DNA of 28,798 nucleotides, taken from NCBI GenBank assembly GCA_035574215.1, contig DATLZC010000109.1:1-28798 (forward strand), read 5' to 3'. Within the stretch, counting starts at the first letter, position 1. Each line of letters opens with the position of its first letter. This stretch comes from Dehalococcoidia bacterium (GTDB lineage Bacteria > Chloroflexota > Dehalococcoidia > DSTF01 > JACRBR01). The notes beneath the pieces were generated by a model, which was given only the letters and a program-made list of their open reading frames with translations, made no database searches and had not been told where the DNA came from. The position numbers and the translations under genes are program-made. Below are positions 1-13,750 of this stretch, one piece after another.

Positions 1-600
1 CTCCGCCTGGTGTTCCGCCACAACCGCTGGGACGTGCTCGCGATGGCGTCGCTCCTGACGCGGCTCGCGATGGCCGTCGACGGCGACACCGAGGACGCGC
101 GCGAGCGTCTCGGCGTCGCCGCGTGGCACGAGCGCCGGGGCGAGCGCGCGAGGGCCGTCGGCGCCTACGCCGGGGCGCTCCCGGAGCTGACCGCAGCGGA
201 GCGGGCGCACGCGCTGCGCCGCCTCGCCCTGCTGTACCGGCGCGAGCGTCGCTGGCACGAGGCTGCGGCGCTCTGGCGCGAGCTCGCGGCGGCGGGCGAT
301 CGCGACGCGCTCATCGAGGTGGCCAAGCACCTCGAGCACCGGGAGCGCGACTACGCGGGCGCGCTCGAGGCGTGCGAGCGGGCGGCGGCGCTGAGCGACT
401 CCCCCGAGTTGCGGCATCGCATGGAGCGGCTGCGCCGGAAGCTCGCGAGCCGGCCGGCCGAAGAAAGGACGGAGCCATGGCCACCTGGGGAGCGTTCGAA
501 CGGGCGGCGCCCCTTCTTGCGCGCCTGGGACGCGAACGCCTGGAGCCGCGGCGCCTCGCCTTCATCGGGACGCTGCGGCGCGACGGTGGGCCGCGCCTGA
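1..600 (+). CDS. C-terminal part of a YprB-like (RNase H-like plus TPR) protein, 5' truncated by the window edge
   Basis: The frame is open from base 1 (LRLVFRHNRWDVLAMASL), resembling the HNxxDv end of RNase_H_2/YprB domains. It is followed by TPR-like helices (HEAAALWRELAA, ALIEVAKHLEHRERDYAGAL, RMERLRRK). The last ~40 codons overlap the next gene. Confidence 0.6.
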   Translation, partial: LRLVFRHNRWDVLAMASLLTRLAMAVDGDTEDARERLGVAAWHERRGERARAVGAYAGALPELTAAERAHALRRLALLYRRERRWHEAAALWRELAAAGDRDALIEVAKHLEHRERDYAGALEACERAAALSDSPELRHRMERLRRKLASRPAEERTEPWPPGERSNGRRPFLRAWDANAWSRGASPSSGRCGATVGRA

Positions 601-1007
601 GCCCGGTCGAGGTCCTGTTCGTCGATGACCACCTGTACGTCGGCATGATGCCGCGCTCGATGAAAGCGCGGGATCTGTTCCGGGATCCCCGCTGTGCGTT
701 GCATAGCCCGACCACCGACCCGAATGGCGAGGAGGGCGACTTCAAGCTCTACGGACGCGCGATCCCGGCGGCGGACCCTGCGCTTCGCGCCCGCCTCCAC
801 GACGCCGTGTTCGAGGCCACGGGATGGCGTCCACCTGACGAAGCGCACGATTTCACCATCGACATCGAGTTGGCGGCGTTCGCGCTGTTCGGGGCGGGAG
901 CGCCCGAGCTTGCGCGGCAGGCGGAACGTGAGGGCGGCCTCCGCGTGCGGTTCATGCCGGGAAGCGCTGGAACCCCGAACGTCGCCCTCGTCTGGCGCGC
1001 GCCGTAG
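477..1007 (+). CDS. Pyridoxamine 5'-phosphate oxidase-family (PPOX class, flavin/F420-binding split beta-barrel) protein
   Basis: ATG at 477 after AAGGACGGAG. Motifs AFIGTLRRDGGPRLSPV, SMKARDLFRDPRCALHS and GDFKLYGRA are typical of PPOX-family proteins. The listed ORF start at 123 is a GC-rich extension. Confidence 0.75.
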   Translation: MATWGAFERAAPLLARLGRERLEPRRLAFIGTLRRDGGPRLSPVEVLFVDDHLYVGMMPRSMKARDLFRDPRCALHSPTTDPNGEEGDFKLYGRAIPAADPALRARLHDAVFEATGWRPPDEAHDFTIDIELAAFALFGAGAPELARQAEREGGLRVRFMPGSAGTPNVALVWRAP

Positions 1008-1024
1008 ACGCTCGCCAGGCGACG

Positions 1025-4000
1025 TTAGGGAGCTCTCGCCAGCGGTGGCCCCGGGATCGGCTTCGGCGTCACCCGGTAGATGGCGGTGGAGCCGTTGTCG
1101 AACGCCTTGTCCAGACGCCCGTTGAGGCCGGCGGCGATGTTCTCGAGCCCTGGCCCCGGGAAGTAGTTGCGCTCGAGCTCGCCGACGATGACATATCGCA
1201 CGTCGTAGCGGTCCAGGATCGCGATCTGCTCGGCGGGGTCCGGCGAGGTGTAGAACCTGGTCACGTCTTCCTGGCGCTTGGTGACCAGGATGCCGTACTT
1301 GCCCCGCTGCTGGCGCTGGTGCCAGTCCCACCCGGCGACCGCGGGCAAGCCCGTGTAGATGGAGTAGCGCGAGCCCCATCGGTACCCGGGCGTCACGCCC
1401 TCCATGATCGCGGGCGACCCCTCGACGTGCTCGCGCATCCACAGGATGCCCTCGTAGTCCTTCGACAGGTCGATGGTCCCCATGTCGTCGAAGTCGTTGA
1501 ACACCGCGTGCGCCATGTAGTTCATGCCGTTGATGGATCGGGGCAGGTCAGCGAAGCGCTCGTCGATGCGCTGGGGGAGCGCCAGGATGGGATACAGCGC
1601 GACGCCCACCAGCGTGACGGCGAGCGCGGACGCGAACGCAGGCGCGAGGTACGGGCGCAGCGCCCCCAGAGACGACCCGACGGCGCGGGCCGCCCGGAGG
1701 GCCCGGACGTCCGGGCGCATGACGGCCGTGAGATACCAGACGCCCACGGCGGACGCCAGCCCGAACAGCAGCCAGGCGTGCAGGTAGAACTTGAAGACGG
1801 TGTTCATCCGGGTGATGTCGTCGTTCAGCGTGATGAGGTCGACGCCGCCGCCCAGGGCGAACGCCATACCGAACATGGCGAGGACGAACAGCCGCACATG
1901 GCTGTCCGGTTTGGGCCTCGCAATCTCGCGCGCCGCGAGCCATGCCACCACCGCGAGCATGACGACGGCGAGCGCGACCACACCCATGCGGCCGCGCTGG
2001 GTGGCGGCGAACACGAAGACCGCGGGCAGTGCGATGAGCAGCGCCCCCATCGACAGGGACACGCCCGTGCCCGAGCGGAGCGACGCCATCGCCGGCGTTC
2101 GCCCGAGAGAGCGGTACAACCAGACGCCCAGGATCGCCGCAGCCAGGAGGACGAACAATCCGAAGTGCCACAGGTAGTCGTCGAGCTGAGTCGTCTGCTC
2201 GGCGCGGTGGAAGCCGGTCGCGGGCGCCAGGAAATGGCGCGAGGCCGGCGAGAAGAGGGCGAGCGACACAGCGAGCACCGCCGCCGACTTCAGGAGCCAC
2301 ATCCCCAGCGTCGAGAGCCGGAGCCCGCCGTCGCCGCGCCACTGGGAGATGAGGAGGGTCGCCGACGCCAGAAGCCCGAACGTAGGGTAATCCCACGAGT
2401 TGGTCCAGCGCGCCGTCCCCACCAGCAGCCCCAGAAGACCCACGAACGTCCACTCCACGGCGAGCCGGCGGCCCCGCGGCCAGCCCCGCGCCTCGCGCGC
2501 CGACGCCACCGCCGCGAGCCCGACCGCCAGGGACAGCAGCGACACCGGGATCACCATCAGATGGGCGTGCAGGTCGGCGAACATGAACGTGAACATCGGG
2601 AATTCGGTGATGGGCGCCGCCTGATTTGCCTGGTCCGGCGTCAGGTGAATGGCCCGGCTCGGATCCCAGTAGTCGTAGGGGATCGTCTCGCCCCGGAGCA
2701 GCTCCAGCGCGCCTCCGGCGACCTCGACGACCGGGCCCACCACGGGCACGTTCGACTGCCAGGGCGACGCCTCGGACAGGCGGTCGAGTCCCTGCGCCAT
2801 GCCCCGGAAATTGCCGGCGAGCACGACCAGGAACACCGCGAGCCCGGCGGCCCACAGGGACGACCACGCAGGGATCGGACGGAACCCGGGCGACCGCTTC
2901 AGCGCGCGGCGGGCCAGCTCCACGAGGTTGTACGCGATCGACGCCACCACGCCGACGGTGAAGGCGAAGTACGTCGGCAGGGCCAGGTTGAACGCGATCT
3001 CCGGGAGAATGCCCGTGAGCTTGATGACGTTCGCGGTCATGAACTGGCCGTAGTAGTAGTAGTTGATGTAGCCGCCCGCATACCACGGGTCGTACGGCGG
3101 CATCGTGGTGCTGCGGGTGACCGCGTTCAGGTACGCGAGCTCCATCGGCTTCTCGCCGCCGCGGAACGGGTGCCAGAGGTCGGGGTTGGCGAGGCGGACG
3201 CCGTACGCCGCGAGGAACGCCGCAATGAAGAGCGCCTCGGCGAGGGCGAGGCCGCGCCAGCGCTCGCGGACGAGCTCCCGAACCTGGGGACCCCAGACAC
3301 TCCGTGTTGCGACGCCGAACAAGAGGATGGCGACGAACACGCCGTACACGACCGGTCGCGTGAAGTCGACCAGACGGAACGATACGGGGCCCCAGACGAG
3401 ATACGCGAAGACGATGAACCCCAAAGGCTTCGTAAGGAGATAGCCGCGGTCGGGCAGCGCGCGGAACAGCACGGAGGCGAGGGGGAGCATCGCGAAGCCG
3501 AGAAGCTCGACGACGGCGAACCAGACGATGAGCGGGTGCTGATTCGCGAAGCTCCTGGCGTCGAAGATGGCGGTCCACGTCCCGCCCGCACGCTGCTTCT
3601 CGAGCTCATCCGGCCGAAGCTGAAGCGCGTTCTTCCCCGCCTCCTTCGGCGTCATCCGCACCGCCGTCTCCGCCTTTTCGACTCCGAGTACGGCGGCCGC
3701 GCGTTCTCTACTGTACGCCGAGGTCTTGCGGTAGATCGTGACGGGCGGATGGTCGTACACCGTCCACGACTCCTCGGCGCTGCGGTCCTGAATCGACACA
3801 CCGAAGATCTCGGGCGGATTCACGAACTCGGCGGCCTTCTCGAAGCCGAGTTCGCCGCTCCGCAACGCCTCGTAGTACCGCGTCGTGACGGGCCAGATGG
3901 CGGGAGCGCGGGGAATGCTCCCCGAGAGGCGATTGCTGGTCAAGATGACATAATCAACGGCGTCCAGGTTGTCGAGCAGCCGGCGGACCTTATCCGGGTC

Positions 4001-5626
4001 GTCGATGTCGTAGTTCTGAAACTCGACGTGCCGGTACTGGTTCGGACCGGCGAACGGAAGGCTGTCGTCCCAGTGTTCGACGCCGAGTGTCGAGCCAGCA
4101 GGGATGTTCTCGTGGATCCACTGCGACGCCTGCACACGGGTCACGGGCTCCATGTAGATGCTGAAGTAGGCGAGTCCCCACGCCGCCGTCAGGGCCACGA
4201 CGGCGGCCCCGGCGATGGTCGCGGCGAGGTGCGCGAGGCGGCCAGCGAGAGCAAGGCGCTCGCGCTGAGCGCGCGGCGCAGCTCCCGCGAACCCGCGGCT
4301 CCAGTCCCACATATGGAGGAGCAGAACCGCGGCGAGGGCAGCCAGCGTCGGGTACAGGGGGAGGAAGTACCGCATGTACAGCGAGAATTGCCCGCCCATG
4401 AAGCCGAAGTAGCCCACCACCCATGAGAGCGGCACCAGCCACACGAGCTCGCGGCGCGCCACGACCCGCCATGTCAGGTAACCGACCGCCAACCAGGCGG
4501 TCACCCCGAGGGGGACGCCCATCCCCCAGAGGGCCATCTGCTGCAGGGGCCACAACCATGGGACGCGCCCGATCCACTGCACGTTCGGGGGGAACGACGA
4601 GCCATCGAGGAGCGCCCGTTGGTCGAGTTCGTCTTGCAGCCAGTGAGGATTCAGACGGATCGTCCAGAACAGGATGTCCTGCCATGAGGGCGCATTGAAG
4701 GCGTACGGCATCGCAATCCGGAAGGCCGCGAACGCCCCGATCGTCGCTACGAGACACAGTCCGAGCGCCCCCAGCAGCGGCTTGCGCGCCGACGCCCAGT
4801 CTAGCCGGGCGTCCCGCTGCGAGCGCCACATCGCTTCGAGCCAAGGTCGGAGGACGGGCCACGCTCGCAGGGACGCGCCCAGCAACACCACGGGGAGCAG
4901 TGAAACGACCGTCACCTTCGACGCCGTCCCGAAGCCGAGGGCTATCCCCGCCAGCAGCGCGCTGCCCCAGCCGCCGCCCTGGGCGAGACGGATGGCGAAG
5001 TACACCGCGACCGAGGCGAAAAACGTGGCGTACGGGTCGACGACGAAGAAGTGACTGTGCTGGATGGGGAGGGGCGCGAAGGCGTAGAGCGTCGCGGCCA
5101 CGACCCCTGCGCGCCTGTCGAGCAGGCGGCTCGCCGTCAGAAAGACCATGAGGATGGTCGCCGAGTCGATGATTCCCGTGAGGGCGCGTCCCGCCCGGTG
5201 CGCGAGGTCGTACGTGTCCCAGTCGCGGTCGGCGAAGCCCAGCGTGAGGAGCCGGGTGTTCGAGGCCACGAACTTCCCGAGGAAGAGCGGCAGCTCCCCG
5301 TACACGTAGGTGTCGTGGTTCCGGTTGTAGGGGTTGAGCGGCGAGCGCTCCGTGTCAAAATAATCCCCAATCGAGTCGGGCGCGCGGATGTCGAGAAGAA
5401 CGGTAGTGATGAAGCGCTCGTCCGGGTGCAGGTGGAGGCTCTGGCCCGAGACGTCGGCGTCCCAGTTGTTGTGGGCCAGCCGCAGATACGCGCCAAGAGC
5501 GACGATGATGACGAGCAACGCGAGGGTGAGGCTCTCCACCCTTGCCGTCGAAAGGGCTCGCAGGCGCGCCAGCGCGCCGGTGCCGGTGGCGAGTTCCCCC
5601 GTCACGGGGGCGGCTCGTTCGGTCAT
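1025..5626 (-). CDS. Large polytopic membrane protein: N-terminal GT-C (PMT_2/GT39-like) glycosyltransferase fused to a DUF2298 / Chlor_Arch_YYY domain
   Basis: 1533 aa with many hydrophobic segments. The N-module has HPDERF and YVYGELP. The C-module has GGEKPME, PPYDPWYAGGYINYYYYG, ITEFPMFTFMFADLHAH, TNSWDYP and RMNTVFKFY, plus a soluble C-terminal domain (YTGLPAVAGWDWHQRQQR, YDVRYVIVGELER). Confidence 0.85.
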   Translation of the reverse strand: MTERAAPVTGELATGTGALARLRALSTARVESLTLALLVIIVALGAYLRLAHNNWDADVSGQSLHLHPDERFITTVLLDIRAPDSIGDYFDTERSPLNPYNRNHDTYVYGELPLFLGKFVASNTRLLTLGFADRDWDTYDLAHRAGRALTGIIDSATILMVFLTASRLLDRRAGVVAATLYAFAPLPIQHSHFFVVDPYATFFASVAVYFAIRLAQGGGWGSALLAGIALGFGTASKVTVVSLLPVVLLGASLRAWPVLRPWLEAMWRSQRDARLDWASARKPLLGALGLCLVATIGAFAAFRIAMPYAFNAPSWQDILFWTIRLNPHWLQDELDQRALLDGSSFPPNVQWIGRVPWLWPLQQMALWGMGVPLGVTAWLAVGYLTWRVVARRELVWLVPLSWVVGYFGFMGGQFSLYMRYFLPLYPTLAALAAVLLLHMWDWSRGFAGAAPRAQRERLALAGRLAHLAATIAGAAVVALTAAWGLAYFSIYMEPVTRVQASQWIHENIPAGSTLGVEHWDDSLPFAGPNQYRHVEFQNYDIDDPDKVRRLLDNLDAVDYVILTSNRLSGSIPRAPAIWPVTTRYYEALRSGELGFEKAAEFVNPPEIFGVSIQDRSAEESWTVYDHPPVTIYRKTSAYSRERAAAVLGVEKAETAVRMTPKEAGKNALQLRPDELEKQRAGGTWTAIFDARSFANQHPLIVWFAVVELLGFAMLPLASVLFRALPDRGYLLTKPLGFIVFAYLVWGPVSFRLVDFTRPVVYGVFVAILLFGVATRSVWGPQVRELVRERWRGLALAEALFIAAFLAAYGVRLANPDLWHPFRGGEKPMELAYLNAVTRSTTMPPYDPWYAGGYINYYYYGQFMTANVIKLTGILPEIAFNLALPTYFAFTVGVVASIAYNLVELARRALKRSPGFRPIPAWSSLWAAGLAVFLVVLAGNFRGMAQGLDRLSEASPWQSNVPVVGPVVEVAGGALELLRGETIPYDYWDPSRAIHLTPDQANQAAPITEFPMFTFMFADLHAHLMVIPVSLLSLAVGLAAVASAREARGWPRGRRLAVEWTFVGLLGLLVGTARWTNSWDYPTFGLLASATLLISQWRGDGGLRLSTLGMWLLKSAAVLAVSLALFSPASRHFLAPATGFHRAEQTTQLDDYLWHFGLFVLLAAAILGVWLYRSLGRTPAMASLRSGTGVSLSMGALLIALPAVFVFAATQRGRMGVVALAVVMLAVVAWLAAREIARPKPDSHVRLFVLAMFGMAFALGGGVDLITLNDDITRMNTVFKFYLHAWLLFGLASAVGVWYLTAVMRPDVRALRAARAVGSSLGALRPYLAPAFASALAVTLVGVALYPILALPQRIDERFADLPRSINGMNYMAHAVFNDFDDMGTIDLSKDYEGILWMREHVEGSPAIMEGVTPGYRWGSRYSIYTGLPAVAGWDWHQRQQRGKYGILVTKRQEDVTRFYTSPDPAEQIAILDRYDVRYVIVGELERNYFPGPGLENIAAGLNGRLDKAFDNGSTAIYRVTPKPIPGPPLARAP

Positions 5627-5661
5627 GTACGCTCTCGCCGGATGGGCGTCGTATCGAGCCG

Positions 5662-5670
5662 ATGATAACA
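5662..5670 (-). promoter_or_regulatory. Candidate extended -10 element (TGtTATCAT) for the DUF2298 fusion gene
   Basis: Minus-strand TGnTATCAT lies 35 nt upstream of the ATG at 5626 in the short divergent intergenic region. There is no matching -35. Confidence 0.3.
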
Positions 5671-5683
5671 GAGGCGCACGTCA

Positions 5684-7123
5684 ATGACCCCGTGCGCGAC
5701 CGCGCGGTCGTGGTTCGCAGGGAGTATCGGCCGCCTCGCCCGGTTCATGACCGGGAGGCGAGCCGAGCTCGTGCTGGCGTGTCTCATTCTTGCCGCCGCG
5801 ACTGCGGTCCGCGTGGTCAAACTGGATACGCTCCCCCGGATTCTCGCAGGGGACGAGCTGGATAACCTCCAAACCGCATATCACATCATCGAAGGGACCG
5901 GGCCTGGGCCGTTCGGCTTCGACTGGAAACCAGCGCCCGCGCTGGGCCTGTACCCCCTCGCGTGGAGCGTGCGAATCTTCGGTAACGGGGTCTGGTCGTT
6001 TCGCATGTTCCCTGTCGTCATGGGCGTATTGACGCTGGCGTTGTTCTACCCCCTCGCTCGGCAATCGATGCGCCCCTTCGCTGCTGTCGCATCGCTCGCG
6101 CTGCTCGGCTCGAATCTGTGGTTTCTGCACTTCTCGCGCACCGCCTGGGACAACATCAATTCTGCGCTGTTCGCGGTCGGCGCCTGCCTGTGTGCGAGCA
6201 GGGCGATCGATTCCCGTGGGTGGCGGTGGTGGGCAGGCGCGGGCGCGTTCAGCGCGCTGGGAATGTACGGCTACTTCACGGGGCGGTTCATCATCGTCGC
6301 GGTGCTGGTGCAGGTGGCGTTGGCGGTGGCATTGCGAACGTTGTCGTGGCGAGACGCCGTGCGCGGTGGGGCGCTCGTCACGCTGATCGCAGCCGTACTC
6401 GTTGCGCCACTGGCGGTGAACGTCCTCGAGGACTGGGACTATTTCAACCGCCGAACCCAGATGGTGTCGGTCTTCAATACGAAACAACCCTACGAAGGCG
6501 ATACGAACGGCTGGGTCATCGCGGCGAAAAACGTGGTGCGGAACTATCGGGGCTTCGTATTGCAGGATGGCTCGGAGTTCCGCCGCGGTCTGTGGACCCG
6601 CTACGGTCCGCCGGGCGCCCCGCCGCTCGATCTGCTCACCACGCACCTGTTTTGGGTTGGGATGGTCGTGGCGGTGGTCCGATTTCGTCAGTCGTTCCAC
6701 TGGTGGCCGTACTTCATCCCGCTGTTCATCTCCGAAGTGTTCTCCCGTGGCACGCCCGACCTTGCCCGCGGCGTTCTGTTCGCCCCGTTCTACTTTTTGT
6801 ACGTAGGCCTGGGCGTGGATGCGCTCGGCCAGGTGGTGGAAACGTGGGGAAGACGGGCGACCGCGACCGCGGCTGCGATTCTTGCAATCGGCGTGGTGGC
6901 CGCCGGGGCCTGGAACATCCGCGAGTACTTCCTGTGGCAATCGAGGGATGCCGTACAGATGCAGCGGCTCCCTGGAATCGATCGCTGCGAATGGGAGCTG
7001 TGGCGGGACATGGCTCGGGAGGCGGCTCGGCTCGGGAACGGTGGAGTGAACGGTGCCGAATTCGAGGCGCGGCGGCGAGTCCTAGATTGTTCGCCCGTCG
7101 TGCGCGCGACGTGGACTCGCTGA
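5684..7123 (+). CDS. GT-C fold membrane glycosyltransferase (ArnT/PMT_2/GT39-like)
   Basis: First TM helix followed by an acidic loop motif (LAGDELDN), then WSFRMFP and WFLHFSRTAW, multiple TM helices and GYFTGRF. The start could instead be the ATG at 5747. Confidence 0.75.
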   Translation: MTPCATARSWFAGSIGRLARFMTGRRAELVLACLILAAATAVRVVKLDTLPRILAGDELDNLQTAYHIIEGTGPGPFGFDWKPAPALGLYPLAWSVRIFGNGVWSFRMFPVVMGVLTLALFYPLARQSMRPFAAVASLALLGSNLWFLHFSRTAWDNINSALFAVGACLCASRAIDSRGWRWWAGAGAFSALGMYGYFTGRFIIVAVLVQVALAVALRTLSWRDAVRGGALVTLIAAVLVAPLAVNVLEDWDYFNRRTQMVSVFNTKQPYEGDTNGWVIAAKNVVRNYRGFVLQDGSEFRRGLWTRYGPPGAPPLDLLTTHLFWVGMVVAVVRFRQSFHWWPYFIPLFISEVFSRGTPDLARGVLFAPFYFLYVGLGVDALGQVVETWGRRATATAAAILAIGVVAAGAWNIREYFLWQSRDAVQMQRLPGIDRCEWELWRDMAREAARLGNGGVNGAEFEARRRVLDCSPVVRATWTR

Positions 7124-7139
7124 CGGTGCGTGCGCTGAA

Positions 7140-8789
7140 TCAGGGGCCTGGCGCTGTTGGCGGAAGGTAATACGCGACGAATTCCACTGTCCCGTTGTGG
7201 CGTGACTCCGTAACCGTGCCTCCCGGGTACAGACGCGTCAACCGCGAAAGGTACTCCTCGTACGGCGGAAGCAGAACGTAGGCGACGCCAGTGTCACGCG
7301 TTCGCCGCAGGTCGAACGTGCCGAATTCTCTCGAACGGTCTTCTCCCTCGACTCCCGGCGCGAGGTAACGGCGCGTTTCATAACCGAAGCCCCAGCGCGC
7401 GCTGTAGAAATACACGTACGTGTCGTCGGGCAGGTCCTGCATGTACTCCGACGCCTTCGCGAGTTCCACAGCGAACGTGAAGCGTGCGAGGCCGGTATCT
7501 GGAAAATCCCGGAAATAGTACGTGAGCGCTTGGTAGCCGATGAACGCGACGACTCCCGCCACGGCCACTCGCGCCAGGATTTGCCAGTCTCGGGCGAACG
7601 ACTGCGCGCGGTCCCATAACGTTGCGAGAGGCACCGCGGCGATCACCGCGACGAACGGTACGAGGCCCAGCGATCGGCGAAACAGCGCGTTATAGGTAAA
7701 TTCGCTGGCCAACGGAAGGAAGACGAACGCTGCCAGGACGGTGGCGGCCGCCGGATTGCGCCACTTCGAGGCCAACATGAGAAGGCCCACAGCAACGAGG
7801 ACGACAGAAGCGCGATCCACCATGGCGCGCGCGCCAGCGGCGTCTGCGCCGTCAGGCTCGCCTTTCCAGAACACGGCCGAGTAGAAATCCTGGACTCGCC
7901 CGAGTGAGAAGGTGAGTTTCTCCCACGCGTCTTTCGACTTCCATTCCTCGCTCTCGAAGACCGACACGGTGCGGTGATGATTCAGGTAGCCGTTCTGTGG
8001 GTCGGCGGCATACTGAATCATCGGGAGCGCTGCGATGACCGCCGTGACGGCGAACAGCGTGAGACAGAAGGCGGGCCGCGCGATCGCGCGAAGCCACCCA
8101 CGCCAGCGGTTCTGCCCGGTCTCAGCCGCCGCGAACCATATCAGCGCGACGGCCACCGGGAGCGCGAACACGGGGTACGCGTTGTAAGTGTAGATCCCTG
8201 CCCCGAACGAAAGGCCCGCTGCCGCGAATGCAAACGGACTTCGGCTTCGAATGCCCCAAAACAGGAACGCGAGGGTGATCAGCTCCACGAGGGGCCACGA
8301 AATGACCATGAAGCCGATGCGGCTGTAATGCAGGTGCCAGAGGCTCACCGAGAGGAGGACCGCGGCGAATATCCCGACGGTCTTGGAGAACATGGTTCGG
8401 AAAGCAAGATACGCAAGGGGCACCGTGAGGGTAGCTAAGACTGCCATGGGCAGTCTGACCGCCAAAATGTCCGGGCCGAACAGCTTCTCGAAGGGCGCTA
8501 CGAAGTAGAGAGGGCCGGCCGGCTGCCCGAGCGCGCTCCCCACGTACGGCCCGATCCACCCCTCTCGCAGGATGCGTTCGGCGTCCAGCCCTGTCCATCC
8601 CTCGTCGCCGTGGAGTCCGGGAGGAATCTTCGTGAGTAACACGAGCCGGGGCACCGCCGCGAAGATGGTGAGCCCGGCAAGCAGGAGCGCCTCGGCCCGC
8701 AGGCCGGCGAGTTTACCGAGGGCGACCTTCGACAGGGACCGGAGCGCCCATCGCTCGCGGGTTGTGCTCGTGCTGACCGTCGTAGCCAC
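7140..8789 (-). CDS. GT-C fold membrane glycosyltransferase (ArnT/PMT_2/GT39-like)
   Basis: PPGLHGDEG acidic motif after TM1, AVRLPMA, WHLHYSRIGF, GIYTYNAY, and a C-terminal extracytoplasmic domain. GTG start after GAGGTAGGA. Confidence 0.8.
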   Translation of the reverse strand: MATTVSTSTTRERWALRSLSKVALGKLAGLRAEALLLAGLTIFAAVPRLVLLTKIPPGLHGDEGWTGLDAERILREGWIGPYVGSALGQPAGPLYFVAPFEKLFGPDILAVRLPMAVLATLTVPLAYLAFRTMFSKTVGIFAAVLLSVSLWHLHYSRIGFMVISWPLVELITLAFLFWGIRSRSPFAFAAAGLSFGAGIYTYNAYPVFALPVAVALIWFAAAETGQNRWRGWLRAIARPAFCLTLFAVTAVIAALPMIQYAADPQNGYLNHHRTVSVFESEEWKSKDAWEKLTFSLGRVQDFYSAVFWKGEPDGADAAGARAMVDRASVVLVAVGLLMLASKWRNPAAATVLAAFVFLPLASEFTYNALFRRSLGLVPFVAVIAAVPLATLWDRAQSFARDWQILARVAVAGVVAFIGYQALTYYFRDFPDTGLARFTFAVELAKASEYMQDLPDDTYVYFYSARWGFGYETRRYLAPGVEGEDRSREFGTFDLRRTRDTGVAYVLLPPYEEYLSRLTRLYPGGTVTESRHNGTVEFVAYYLPPTAPGP

Positions 8790-8924
8790 GCCGTCCTACC
8801 TCGAGGGTGCGAGCAGGCTTTCGCTCCCTTGGCACGAAGCTTAACCCGCCCAGGCCACCTACGTCACCCGCGGCCCATGGCTACATATCGGCAGGCGGCG
8901 AGGCTTCCACCATGGCTATGCTAG

Positions 8925-9728
8925 CTAGCCCTTCATCGGCTTGTCGGCGGAGATGTAGGCGCTGGTCCAGCCGCGGCCGTCGTCGGGGCCGTGCTCGATG
9001 CGGATGCGCTCGAAGCCGGCGGCGCGCAGCTTCTCCGCGAATGCGCCCACCGTCAGCGCGCCAGCCACGCATCCCGCCCATGACGCCAGGTCGCTCTGCT
9101 CCTCCGGCGTGGGCTCTCGCACCCACACGATGTCCGACACGCGGAAGCGCCCGCCCGGCTTCAGCACCCGGTACGCCTCGCGCAACACGGCGTCCTTGTC
9201 GGGTGAGAGGTTGATCACGCAGTTCGAGATGATGACGTCGACGCTGCCGGAGTCGACCGGGAGCGCCTCGATCTCGCCGGCGCGGAACTCGACGTTGGAG
9301 GCGCCGACCTTCGCCAGGTTGCGGCGGGCGAGCTCGAGCATCTCAGGGGTCATGTCGACGCCGATGACCCGGCCCGCGGGACCCACCCGCTGCGCCGCCA
9401 GGAAGCAGTCGAGCCCGGCGCCGCTGCCTAGGTCGAGCACGGTTTCGCCTTCGCGAAGCTCGGCCAGCGCGATGGGATTCCCGCACCCGAGCGACAGCTC
9501 CGCGACGGTCTCGGGCACGGCGCCCAGCTCCTGCGCCGAGTACAGCCGCTGCGCCCAGCTCGACACTTCCTCTTGCGGCGCTTCGGCCGGGCCGCAGCAG
9601 GGGTCGCAGCAGGACGCGGACGTCTCGATCAGGGGGATGGGGTCTTCCTGTTGGAGCCGCTCGCGGGCCCGCGCGGCGTAGCGCTCCTTAACCGCAATCT
9701 TGATCTCGTCGGCAGGCGGATTCGGCAT
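8925..9728 (-). CDS. arsM: Arsenite S-adenosylmethionine methyltransferase
   Basis: SLGCGNP, SAM-binding VLDLGSGAGLDC, GVDMTPEML, DVIISNCVINL, LKPGGR and WAGCVAG carry the conserved ArsM cysteines. There is also an N-terminal CCDPCC. Confidence 0.9.
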   Translation of the reverse strand: MPNPPADEIKIAVKERYAARARERLQQEDPIPLIETSASCCDPCCGPAEAPQEEVSSWAQRLYSAQELGAVPETVAELSLGCGNPIALAELREGETVLDLGSGAGLDCFLAAQRVGPAGRVIGVDMTPEMLELARRNLAKVGASNVEFRAGEIEALPVDSGSVDVIISNCVINLSPDKDAVLREAYRVLKPGGRFRVSDIVWVREPTPEEQSDLASWAGCVAGALTVGAFAEKLRAAGFERIRIEHGPDDGRGWTSAYISADKPMKG

Positions 9729-10101
9729 GACTCGCTCCTTTCGATTCGCCCGCGGGGCCGAGCAGCCCCCTGGTGACGGCTTGCGACAGATAGGGGAGGA
9801 CGTGGCCCCAGGCCTCGGCGGCGACGCGGTACGCCCGCCAGCCGCGCTCGGTGAGCTCGCAGACCTTGCGGACGCGCGCCCCCTGGCGTTCCTCGCGGCA
9901 GACGATGTACCCGCCGAGCGTGAGTTCGCGGATGGTCGGGTAGATCATGGCGTCGGAAGGCTCGCAGCAATGGTCGCACGCCTCTGCGATGGCCCTGGCG
10001 AGCTCGTACCCGTGCATCGGGCGCTCCGCGAGGCTCGCGAGCAGGAAGAAGCGCGAGGCGCTGCGGGCGATGAGGGTATCCCAGTGAGCGCGGGTGTCCA
10101 T
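9688..10101 (-). CDS. PadR-family winged-helix transcriptional regulator, Cys-rich
   Basis: PadR hallmarks LLASLAERPMHGYELARAI, MIYPTIREL and RKVCELTERG. It overlaps the arsM start by 41 nt and contains the arsM SD sequence (AAAGGAG). Confidence 0.8.
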   Translation of the reverse strand: MDTRAHWDTLIARSASRFFLLASLAERPMHGYELARAIAEACDHCCEPSDAMIYPTIRELTLGGYIVCREERQGARVRKVCELTERGWRAYRVAAEAWGHVLPYLSQAVTRGLLGPAGESKGASHAESACRRDQDCG

Positions 10102-10111
10102 AGCTAGGTCA

Positions 10112-10141
10112 ACGATATATCGGCGGGCTAGGTGTCGTCAA
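10112..10141 (-). promoter_or_regulatory. Sigma70-type promoter of the padR-arsM unit
   Basis: Minus strand TTGACG-N18-TATCGT, ending 10 nt before the padR ATG. The palindrome CGATATATCG overlaps the -10. Confidence 0.55.
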
Positions 10142-10176
10142 GGGCGGGGAAATCCAGTGGGCCCGGACGTGCCGCG

Positions 10177-10512
10177 TCACAGGCCCTCGCGCACCAGCGA
10201 GTCGAGCGCAAACTCGAAGTAGGTGACCGCCTCGGAGAAGCTGAACCGTTCGCGGTCGTACACCACCGATGGAGGTCCGTCGGCGGGCGTCTCGAGGTGA
10301 GCGCCGAGCCGGGGAAACGCGAAGATGCGGAAGCGGCCCATGGGACCTTCCAGAAGCTCCGGCTTTCGCTTGAGCAGCTCGACGTACGCCTCCGCGGCGC
10401 GGCGGACGACGTCGGGGTAGTTTCCCGCGACGAGCGAGGCATGGGCGGCGCGCAGCGATTCGCGCAGCGCTTCGTCCTGGATCCGTTCGAGCTTCGCCGG
10501 AGGCGCAGGCAT
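10177..10512 (-). CDS. Hypothetical protein (111 aa), last gene of the di-iron operon
   Basis: ATG 2 nt after the LLM stop, with normal codon usage and protein-like composition. I recognise no family. Confidence 0.7.
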   Translation of the reverse strand: MPAPPAKLERIQDEALRESLRAAHASLVAGNYPDVVRRAAEAYVELLKRKPELLEGPMGRFRIFAFPRLGAHLETPADGPPSVVYDRERFSFSEAVTYFEFALDSLVREGL

Positions 10513-10514
10513 GG

Positions 10515-11759
10515 TCAGATGGAGGAATTGACCGGGTACTCCACGCCGTCGAGCTGCCGCTCGCGCCAGCGCCGGTGCTGTTCGTGGCGCTCCTTGAACT
10601 CAGGGAGCACCTTCGTCCCGAACAGGTACAGCGAGTCCATGATGTCCTCGTGCTTCCGGGCGCCCGCCTGCGCGACGAAGATCATGAGGTCGAGGTGCGC
10701 GTCCTCGTACTTGCGCAGCGTCTCGCGGATGAACGCCGGGCTGCCGATACAGCCGCCCCGGCGGGACGCCCGCCAGAGGGCCCGCTGCACTTCGTCGGCG
10801 GGCTCTTCTTCGCTCGCGCCGCCGGCGTAGCCGCCGAACCCCCGGCCGCCGAAGATGTCCATGCGCCGCTCCGGGGGCGTCTCGAGGAACCGGCGGTACA
10901 GGTGGACCTTCGACGGCTCGTGGGCTGCGCCGAGGGGACTGTAGTAGTAGCCCAGAGAGTAGGCGAAGAACTGCGTGCCTTCCACGCCCTTTTCGATGGC
11001 TTCGTCGTCCGTCTCGCAGCACATGAGCGAGGACAGCACCGCGAGCGCCGGGTTGATCGCCTTGCCGATGGGGAAGCACTCCTCCCGGATGAGGCGATAG
11101 TAGTTCTCGACGCGCTCCTGCGCCTCCTCCGGCGTCTCGAAGGCGAAGCCGAGGGAGCCCATGCCCAGGCGGGCGGCGACCATCGTTGTTTCGCGCCGGG
11201 ACGACGCCACCCAGAGCGGCGGGTGCGGCTTCTGCAGCGGCTTCGGGATGACGTTGCGGGGCGGCATGCCGAAGTACGCGCCCTCGAACCCCGGATACGG
11301 GCTCGAGGTCATCATGTTCACGCACTCGCGGGTCGCCTCCTCCCACATCATCTTCTTCTCTTCGCGGGCGACGCCGAACCCGCCGAGCTCCATCTCCGAA
11401 GACGACTCCCCGGTGCCGAATTCGACCCGCCCGTCGCTCACAAGGTCCAGCGTGGCGATGCGCTCGGCGACGCGGGCGGGGTGGTTGTACCGTGGCGGCA
11501 TGAGGACGATGCCGTGCCCGAGCCGGATGTGCTTCGTGCGCTGGCTGGCGGCGGCGAGGAACACCTCGGGCGCCGAGGAGTGCGAGTACTCTTCGAGGAA
11601 GTGGTGCTCGACCTCGAAGACGTAGTCGAAGCCCAGTTTGTCGGCGAGCTCGATCTGCTCGAGCGCGTCCTTCAGCAGGCGATGCTCGGCGTCGGGGTCC
11701 CAGTCGTCGCGGTCGGGCGGACGGGGGAGCTGGTGTTCGTAGAAGAGGCCGAATTTCAT
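10515..11759 (-). CDS. LLM-class (luciferase-like) flavin-dependent oxidoreductase/monooxygenase
   Basis: MKFGLFYE, ELADKLGFDYVFEVEHHF, SAPEVFLAAASQRTKHIRLGHG, HPARVAERIATLDLVSDGRVEFGTG and PKPLQKPHPPLWVA. SD GGGAGG upstream. Confidence 0.9.
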   Translation of the reverse strand: MKFGLFYEHQLPRPPDRDDWDPDAEHRLLKDALEQIELADKLGFDYVFEVEHHFLEEYSHSSAPEVFLAAASQRTKHIRLGHGIVLMPPRYNHPARVAERIATLDLVSDGRVEFGTGESSSEMELGGFGVAREEKKMMWEEATRECVNMMTSSPYPGFEGAYFGMPPRNVIPKPLQKPHPPLWVASSRRETTMVAARLGMGSLGFAFETPEEAQERVENYYRLIREECFPIGKAINPALAVLSSLMCCETDDEAIEKGVEGTQFFAYSLGYYYSPLGAAHEPSKVHLYRRFLETPPERRMDIFGGRGFGGYAGGASEEEPADEVQRALWRASRRGGCIGSPAFIRETLRKYEDAHLDLMIFVAQAGARKHEDIMDSLYLFGTKVLPEFKERHEQHRRWRERQLDGVEYPVNSSI

Positions 11760-11792
11760 GGTGGCGTCCTCCCTCGGCGGGATGCGATCACG

Positions 11793-12416
11793 TCAACGGC
11801 CGCCGGTCACGCCGCCCGAGCGGACCAACAGGTCCTCGAGGTGCATCTGCCATTCGAGCGCTGTGCGGCGCTTCTGCGGCGTGTCGGCGAGCTCTTCGTA
11901 GATGGCCTGGCCCCACTGGATGTGCCGCTCTTCCTCGAGCAGGATGTGCTCCAGGATGCGGACGGTGGGCGCGTCGCACACCTTGTCCGTGACGAGCAGA
12001 TGGTGGCGGTAGTACACGGCGAGGTGCGTCTTGAGGACGCGATACAGCCCGACGATGCGCAGGAGCTCGTCGTCCTGCAGCATCATCGTCTCGCAGAAGC
12101 GCACGAACTCCTCGTTGGGCGGCTCGGCCCGTGTCGACGAGCGTAGAGTCGGCGGGACGTCCATCTCCATCCCCTCGGTCACGCGGAGCTCGGGGAGCCG
12201 CTGCCCGAGCCAGTACGAGTGGATGGAGTCGTGGTAGCAGTGCTCGCCGAAGGCGAACTTGACTTTGATGGTGGGGCAGGAGGAAGCCCACCCTCCCAGG
12301 GCCGTCATGCAGACGTTCTCGGCGTAGCGGTAGTTCAGGATACGGCGGGCGTTCTCGTCCACGGAGAAGGCGCCGCCGATGTGCCGCGGGTCGACGGCGA
12401 GTTCCAGCGCTCCCAT
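11793..12416 (-). CDS. Ferritin-like four-helix-bundle protein with a degenerate di-metal ligand set
   Basis: SD TGAGGAG is 7 nt before the ATG at 12416 (alternative ATG at 12422). The helical pattern includes E33, D63xxH66 and DAPTVRILEHILLEEERH (E162xxH165). Confidence 0.65.
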   Translation of the reverse strand: MGALELAVDPRHIGGAFSVDENARRILNYRYAENVCMTALGGWASSCPTIKVKFAFGEHCYHDSIHSYWLGQRLPELRVTEGMEMDVPPTLRSSTRAEPPNEEFVRFCETMMLQDDELLRIVGLYRVLKTHLAVYYRHHLLVTDKVCDAPTVRILEHILLEEERHIQWGQAIYEELADTPQKRRTALEWQMHLEDLLVRSGGVTGGR

Positions 12417-12427
12417 GTTCATGCTCC

Positions 12428-12754
12428 TCAGGCCGGCGCGGGCGCCTCGCGGAGACGGGCCAGCGCAGCCGCCACTTGCGCCTTGCGCGCCAGCTTCGCT
12501 GCGTGCTGCCGGGCGGCCCAGGCCCGCGCCTTCTCCTTCGCCCGCTCGAGCTGCTCGGGCGACGGCCGGTACGGGTCCTCGTCGATGCAGTCCACGGGGC
12601 ACACCTTCACGCAGATCCCGCAGTCGATGCACCATTCCGGGTCGACGACATGCGTACGGTGACCCGTCGAAAAGTATCGGATGCACTCGGTGGGGCAGGC
12701 GCGCCGGCACCAGCTACAGTTGATGCACGCCGCGAGGTCGATGCGGACGGCCAC
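12428..12754 (-). CDS. 2[4Fe-4S] dicluster ferredoxin with a C-terminal basic/Ala-rich helix
   Basis: Two CxxCxxCxxxCP motifs: CINCSWCRRACP and CIDCGICVKVCP. GTG start 3 nt after the upstream stop. Confidence 0.9.
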   Translation of the reverse strand: MAVRIDLAACINCSWCRRACPTECIRYFSTGHRTHVVDPEWCIDCGICVKVCPVDCIDEDPYRPSPEQLERAKEKARAWAARQHAAKLARKAQVAAALARLREAPAPA

Positions 12755-12757
12755 GGC

Positions 12758-13579
12758 TCACGCGGCCCCTTCCTGCCCCTGGGCGACCGCGCCCGTGCCG
12801 AGCGCGGCCATCCCCCGGTCCATTTCCTCCGCGAAGAACCGCCGCAGCTCCTCGGTCTGTTCGCCCGAGAGCCGCGCCCGGAACCCTTCGGACAGCGCGT
12901 GCGCGCGCAGCGCCCGTTGCTCCTTCTCGGGGTCGCCCTCGACGAGCTCCTTGATGAAGTAGTCGCCGATGGCGGTGTGAGTAACCTCGTCCGCCCAGTT
13001 GTAGTCGTAGACGTGCGCCATGAGCCGGTCGCCGATCTTCTCACCGACGAACGAAGTGTCCTTGAAGAGCTGCAACGCCGCTCCTTCGAGGGACACGTTC
13101 GTCATCGAGAGGCTCACCACCGGGTCGCGCATAATCTGCTGCACCTGGTCGGGCATGAGGGTGCCGGCGGCGCCACCGCCCGCCAGCGTGTCGGGATACT
13201 CGCCGATGCGCCCTCCGTACGATTCCAGCAGCTCCTTCCCGAGCCAGGCGTGGCGCACTTCGTCCCAGGTCTGGCGGGCCATGGCCATGATTAGCGACCA
13301 GGGAACGGGCCACTCCTGCCACTCGCAGACCTTCCGGCTGAAGGCGTCGATGCCCGCGAACTCGGCGCTGACGATGCCGCTGACCAGCGCCTTCCTGAAC
13401 TCGAGGTTGTCGGGGTCGGCCAGGACCATCTGGCGCAGGAGCTGCAGGTCGTAGTTGGCGGCGTCGCCGAGCCGTGCCGCGAGGCTAGCCCGCTCAGCGT
13501 CGTCGATGACCGCGACGGGCCGATACGCCGGCTCCCGGCGCGACGGCAGCTCCCGGACGTGGTCGGCGAACTTCCCCAT
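12758..13579 (-). CDS. Ferritin-like (DUF455-like) di-iron carboxylate protein
   Basis: SD GGGAGG before the ATG at 13579. It has a full ligand set: E73, DE107xxH110 (WDEVRH), E165 and DE198xxH201 (ADEVTH). Confidence 0.75.
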   Translation of the reverse strand: MGKFADHVRELPSRREPAYRPVAVIDDAERASLAARLGDAANYDLQLLRQMVLADPDNLEFRKALVSGIVSAEFAGIDAFSRKVCEWQEWPVPWSLIMAMARQTWDEVRHAWLGKELLESYGGRIGEYPDTLAGGGAAGTLMPDQVQQIMRDPVVSLSMTNVSLEGAALQLFKDTSFVGEKIGDRLMAHVYDYNWADEVTHTAIGDYFIKELVEGDPEKEQRALRAHALSEGFRARLSGEQTEELRRFFAEEMDRGMAALGTGAVAQGQEGAA

Positions 13580-13614
13580 CGGCGTCCTCCCGGGCGTGTG
13601 CGGGTAGTGCAGCG

Positions 13615-13643
13615 AGTATAGTACGGCGGGCCCCATTCGTAAA
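13615..13643 (-). promoter_or_regulatory. Sigma70-type promoter of the di-iron/ferredoxin/LLM operon
   Basis: Minus strand TTTACG-N17-TATACT, 35 nt upstream of the ATG at 13579. Confidence 0.6.
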
Positions 13644-13716
13644 GTCCCAGGATTGGCGCTTCTGCAATGATCGGGCCTGAATGATGCAGTTGCGTCAGTA
13701 GAAGCGCGGCTCGATT

Positions 13717-13750
13717 GCGGCCGGAGCATTCTGGCCGCTCCGCGGGAGCG
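13717..13750 (-). terminator. Possible terminator-like hairpins downstream of DUF1015
   Basis: Two overlapping GC-rich stems: GCGGCCGGA-gcat-TCTGGCCGC (one mismatch) and CGCTCC-gcg-GGAGCG. There is no U-tract. Confidence 0.25.

Follow-up and report, generated by a model that had tools for sequence, protein, structure and literature searches.

A PadR-type regulator with five conserved cysteines as the predicted arsenic switch of arsM in Dehalococcoidia

The PadR-type regulator encoded next to arsM in the analyzed window (28,798 nucleotides of contig DATLZC010000109.1 from a Dehalococcoidia bacterium) is very probably the arsenic switch of this adjoining gene, with a predicted arsenic-sensing function. 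We consider it probable that padR and arsM form an autoregulated two-gene operon, which is derepressed when trivalent arsenic binds to the cysteine pair C45-C46 and a third thiol. The system is a real and coherent variant of the published PadRars family, and the principle of a PadR-type arsenic repressor was already known. That PadR acts as a repressor of arsM is suggested by the conserved linkage of the two genes, PadR-ArsM fusions, the two best operator matches in the genome, and the homology to PadRars.

The padR gene (9688–10101, minus strand) encodes a 137-aa protein that passed the threshold of the Pfam PadR model (PF03551; E = 4e-13, 49.6 bits versus a cut-off of 27). It is a predicted repressor of the LmrR-like, short winged-helix form and belongs to the arsM-linked branch of PadRars. 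Its ORF overlaps by 41 nt with arsM (8925–9728, minus strand), whose product, an As(III) S-adenosylmethionine methyltransferase of 267 aa, matched the NCBIfam arsenite methyltransferase model NF008823 with 307 bits (cut-off 263). The first-pass annotation, which had described a PadR with C42-x-x-C45-C46, C68, and C81 overlapping arsM, was thus correct on the identity and arrangement of both genes. ArsM has CC pairs at its N-terminus in addition to conserved C82, C108, C170, and C220, of which C82, C170, C220, and the N-terminal CC are kept across related loci; an AAGGAG motif of arsM is located at 9735–9740. HTH_5 (PF01022), the mark of the ArsR/SmtB family, had no match in PadR at E ≤ 0.001, and all six HTH_5 matches in the genome were on other contigs. 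Neither Acr3 nor ArsP was found in this genome, which is 85% complete.

In the AlphaFold model of PadR (pLDDT 84.6), helices span residues 4–26, 31–41, 50–62, and 85–114, and the wing strands residues 66–73 and 76–83. The best Foldseek matches of the model, whose fold includes the C-terminal helix, were LmrR and other short PadRs. LmrR and Rv3488 are the nearest solved folds, and Trp98 aligns with the Trp of the C-terminal helix in LmrR; in contrast to the window PadR, however, LmrR has no Cys cluster ahead of the recognition helix according to the alignment, is a drug-binding protein, and has no ars genes under its control. The five core Cys residues of the window PadR are C42 (codon 9976–9978), the pair C45-C46 (9964–9969), C68 (9898–9900), and C81 (9859–9861), all encoded on the minus strand. 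C42 to C46 lie in the loop between helices 31–41 and 50–62, immediately ahead of the recognition helix, and the two strands of the wing (codons 9859–9900 from C81 to C68) carry C68 and C81, one each. Judging from the hairpin register and the strand limits, C68 and C81 would form a cross-strand pair. Two additional residues, C130 and C136, which the first-pass annotation had not named, are situated in a low-confidence tail, which is encoded at 9688–9728 inside the arsM overlap. Since the five core Cys were invariant in 120 of 120 closest homologues and absent from 75 ordinary PadR loci, which had zero Cys in the aligned region, their pattern is not due to chance.

The association with arsM extends over the whole branch. 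Directly downstream of padR, on the same strand and within 1 kb, arsM was found in 81 of 90 branch loci with sufficient room, as compared to 0 of 69 control loci with Cys-less PadRs; these counts are non-redundant and refer to loci that are kin and not independent. Two loci that were sorted wrongly in the count, L187 and L210, fall into the branch in the tree. PadR-ArsM fusions occur in two separate sub-branches (L136:656–1933, plus strand; L187:658–1848, minus strand). Among the 81 arsM-linked members, C42 was kept in 73, C45 in 75, C46 in 77, C68 in 77, C81 in 67, and all five in 53. C42 and C68 were lost in six orphan branch members without arsM. Orphans of one family (L176 and L178–L183) had no arsM downstream, lacked C42 and C68, and, in those viewed, had no obvious operator boxes upstream. 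A loop variant, C41-C42-x-x-W, replaces C45-C46 in L152, some of L184–L193, and L211, and most of these loci still have arsM after padR. Because of these variants and the missing C42 in 8 of the 81 arsM-linked members, the site is plastic, in that the thiol pair can shift inside the loop. The named relatives were mostly Dehalococcoidia or Chloroflexota. The gene is patchy in its distribution and was detected in 37 of 401 sampled genomes of the class (a few CC-only members included), 6 of 401 of the phylum, and 0 of 13 others of the window's family.

In one sub-branch, padR is directly followed by an ORF of 63–78 aa for half a winged helix, with arsM coming next in loci that extend far enough (L120:5384–5599, plus strand; also L105, L112, L115, L117, L131, L134, L138, L142, L149, and L162). 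This ORF is a truncated padR duplicate that lacks helix 1 and the CC loop, with the C68/C81 equivalents kept and the wing arginines altered, and its median dN/dS was ~0.17 over 10 sequences. No description of it was found in the literature; its product is possibly a modulator or a thiol-binding partner. Upstream of the window operon, an unrelated-looking gene string (10177–13729, minus strand) encodes a DUF455-like protein, a 4Fe-4S ferredoxin, an unassigned ORF, a luciferase-like monooxygenase, and a small protein, and adjoins padR in close kin only. Downstream of arsM, two PMT_2 glycosyltransferase genes in convergent orientation (5684–8789) fall outside the conserved unit. A second padR-arsM copy is present on contig C154 of the genome, which is 93.4% identical to positions 1–10085 of the window, and probably stems from a co-binned related strain (contamination 5.9%) rather than being a paralogue. 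A further ArsM-like methyltransferase gene (L218; contig C87:422–1018, minus strand) contains one in-frame TGA and possibly encodes an ArsM-like selenoprotein.

Upstream of padR, we identified a sigma70-type promoter (TTGACG-N18-TATCGT; 10112–10141, minus strand; one site versus 0.1 expected in shuffles). Only 10 nt separate the −10 box from the padR ATG, and the transcript is probably leaderless or nearly so. TTGAC is present at most homologous promoters together with repeated boxes, which were spaced by 15, 30, and 45 bp in 82, 42, and 13 pairs, respectively (any other spacing, ≤10). A position weight matrix (PWM) built from 65 homologous promoters, with the window and its closest kin (L081–L083) left out, yielded a 21-bp inverted repeat with the consensus ATA(C/T)(C/A)TAG-N5-CTA(G/T)(G/A)TAT. 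When the 2.37-Mb genome was scanned with this PWM, the best match (29.4 bits) was predicted operator 2 at 10100–10120, which spans the start codon in addition to the −10 box. The second best match (18.5 bits) was predicted operator 1 at 10115–10135, between the −35 and −10 boxes. The two 21-bp inverted repeats share one middle box, and the next hit beyond this pair at the padR promoter was an unrelated site of 13.5 bits. The scan gave no sign of a larger regulon in this genome, and the predicted operator layout is that of an autoregulated repressor with this operon as its regulon. Our assessment relies on the 15-bp periodicity of the boxes and the held-out genome scan; a count of the motif against shuffles was set aside as circular, since the motif was derived from the same sequences. 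The proposal that a Cys-rich PadR takes the place of ArsR and controls arsM is backed by the linkage, the two fusions, and a conserved operator in exactly the region that had been proposed (10100–10145), from which we infer that such control is very probable.

A PadR-type arsenic repressor, PadRars, has been described by Zhang, Wu, Tang, Chen, Rosen, and Zhao (2022, Environ Microbiol 24:5139, PMID 35880613), and its operator is given as CCTTGA-11N-TCAAGG in PMC12817078. Since CCTTGA-N11-TCAAGG stands upstream of the gene for WP_245593555 in Azospirillum halopraeferens (Au 4; locus L215), this protein is, by operator match, the PadRars of that organism. WP_245593555 has 135 aa with Cys56/57 and Cys133/134, and its gene lies beside aio genes and upstream of genes for a flavin monooxygenase and an MFS protein, which we read as arsV-arsW. 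PadRars reportedly represses arsV-arsW, is said to be induced most strongly by MAs(III), and reportedly needs Cys56/57, with Cys133 or Cys134 as the third ligand. The window PadR is 45% identical to WP_245593555 over 105 aa (ungapped, E = 1e-33), and C45/C46 align on Cys56/57 with an offset of 11. In trees calculated from a short alignment, with the root not fixed, both proteins grouped together and apart from the Cys-less PadRs (support 100/97; SH-aLRT 96 without the Cys columns). In these trees, the arsM branch was supported by 99/97 with all columns, the outgroup attached inside this branch once the Cys columns were removed, and the split between arsM-linked and CC-only proteins had an SH-aLRT of 97 without the Cys columns.

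More distant relatives of the window PadR keep only C45-C46, which was present in 120 of 120 sequences in both homologue sets. All 120 CC-only relatives examined have Thr at position 42 and Tyr at position 81, and Ser or Ala stands in place of C68. The CC-only genes precede ArsP, flavin monooxygenase and MFS (ArsVW), or ArsK-like MFS and ArsH (arsC-padR-MFS-arsH) genes. Parts of the initial interpretation had to be revised. A novel non-ArsR sensor on a PadR scaffold had been proposed, and we reject the idea of a categorically new one because PadRars and MarRars were already known. The site had also been regarded as convergent, with C42, C45, and C46 as an essential triad resembling that of R773 ArsR. 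C45/C46 is inherited from the Cys56/57 pair of PadRars and forms the deep core of the site, and C42 is variable, being Thr in the CC-only relatives and lost in some arsM-linked members. What remains of the likeness to R773 ArsR is the position of the site in the DNA-binding domain.

The window PadR and PadRars have in common the PadR fold, the Cys pair, the YW and HGY motifs, and Trp98; both head an ars operon, and their inverted repeats overlap the −35 region. However, the window branch is linked to arsM and not to arsV-arsW, and its members occur mostly in Dehalococcoidia. The window PadR adds C42, C68, and C81, where PadRars has Thr, Ser, and Tyr, respectively, and its recognition helix starts with PSDAMIYP instead of PAEGTIYP. 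The operators differ as well, as the branch consensus is not the PadRars operator and the A. halopraeferens promoter scored −6.5 on the PWM of the window branch. Most members of the window branch lack the C-terminal CC (Cys133/134). The window PadR itself has C130 and C136 rather than a CC pair; a counterpart of the PadRars tail pair occurred in only 21 of 120 close homologues, and 99 of 120 had no tail Cys. In some close kin, the protein ends in CC or a comparable sequence, which recalls the C-terminal pair of PadRars. Since the C-terminal pair is also missing from CC-only ArsP-linked members, it separates subgroups of the PadRars family. New in the window system are thus the arsM target (not arsVW, arsP, or arsH), the three added Cys, the usual lack of the C-terminal pair, the distinct operator, and the Dehalococcoidia hosts.

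Similar site logic is known from other repressors. AdMarRars of Achromobacter deleyi As-55, which responds to As(III)/Sb(III) through Cys36/37 and a third Cys (bioRxiv 10.1101/2021.08.12.456183), is likewise a non-ArsR winged-helix repressor with a vicinal Cys pair, but belongs to the MarR family, has its third Cys at position 157, and controls arsV. The As(III) repressors of the ArsR/SmtB family (R773 ArsR with C32/C34/C37, AfArsR, CgArsR, SpArsR, and ArArsR) resemble the window PadR in the logic of a three-thiol site but represent another family with unrelated Cys spacing; ArArsR, encoded in arsRMC, also heads an arsM operon (PMC11868830). In the window system, PadR dimers would occupy both overlapping operators, which together span the −35 box, the −10 box, and the start codon, and would thereby block transcription. 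As(III), with MAs(III) and Sb(III) as probable further inducers, would bind to the thiols of C45-C46 in the loop before the recognition helix, with C42 as the likeliest third ligand in the arsM-linked branch. Metalloid binding would displace the recognition helix and release the repressor, and ArsM produced from the derepressed padR-arsM operon would then methylate arsenic. The plasticity of the Cys site and the rarity of a counterpart to the C-terminal pair weigh against this reading.

The strongest alternative is that PadR mainly senses MAs(III) via C45-C46 alone, like SpArsR or PadRars, so that detoxification of methylarsenite would be the chief task of ArsM, with a structural or accessory role for C42, C68, and C81. 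This fits the status of C45-C46 as the sole Cys feature common to the whole family, the dispensability of C42 in several arsM-linked lineages, and the finding that three-Cys ArsRs sense As(III), whereas two-Cys ArsRs respond to MAs(III) and not As(III) (PMC11868830). However, retention of the extra Cys is specific to the arsM-linked branch, C42 and C68 decay in orphans, and the Cys pattern would suit a three-coordinate site for As(III), the first substrate of ArsM; we therefore regard this alternative as unlikely. Somewhat less probable still is a sensor of thiol redox state (disulfide C68-C81 or C42-C45) or soft metals (Zn, Hg, Cu) that ties arsM to general thiol stress. The cross-strand register of C68 and C81 inferred from the model is compatible with a disulfide, and a few branch members precede genes other than arsM, namely MFS (L196/L198) or another methyltransferase (L211). 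Yet 90% of the loci have an arsenic-specific enzyme as the target, and the homologue PadRars is a published repressor responding to trivalent metalloids. That the PadR of this genome responds to no signal, or that it regulates a gene other than arsM, with the Cys as a lineage quirk, is very improbable in view of the invariant Cys, the PadR-ArsM fusions, and the confinement of the operator to the padR promoter.

Returning to PadR as the arsenic switch of arsM, the occurrence of CC-only proteins beside MAs(III) defences and of Cys-rich ones beside ArsM fits the Cys-number rule of ArsRs, as a correlation across one tree split. We tentatively suggest, as a scenario that may well prove wrong, that a two-Cys MAs(III) switch (for ArsP, ArsVW, and ArsH) was re-tuned in this branch so as to respond to As(III) and act on arsM. 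Here, the local C42 would replace the C-terminal Cys, and C68/C81 would be a second, wing-based thiol site of a kind not described in any arsenic sensor. C68 and C81 may form such a second site or a disulfide, or may reflect no more than a remodelling of the core.

With the principle of a PadR arsenic repressor already published, the system offers limited surprise. How arsM is switched in uncultured bacteria of sediments, soils, and the subsurface is, however, an open question of arsenic biogeochemistry, and annotation centred on ArsR misses this PadR regulator of arsM. The branch offers a precise predicted operator and a defined set of candidate Cys ligands, and might serve as the source of a novel arsenic biosensor part. 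If the re-tuning scenario is true, the branch would be a natural experiment that relates the number of Cys ligands to the inducer and the target gene.
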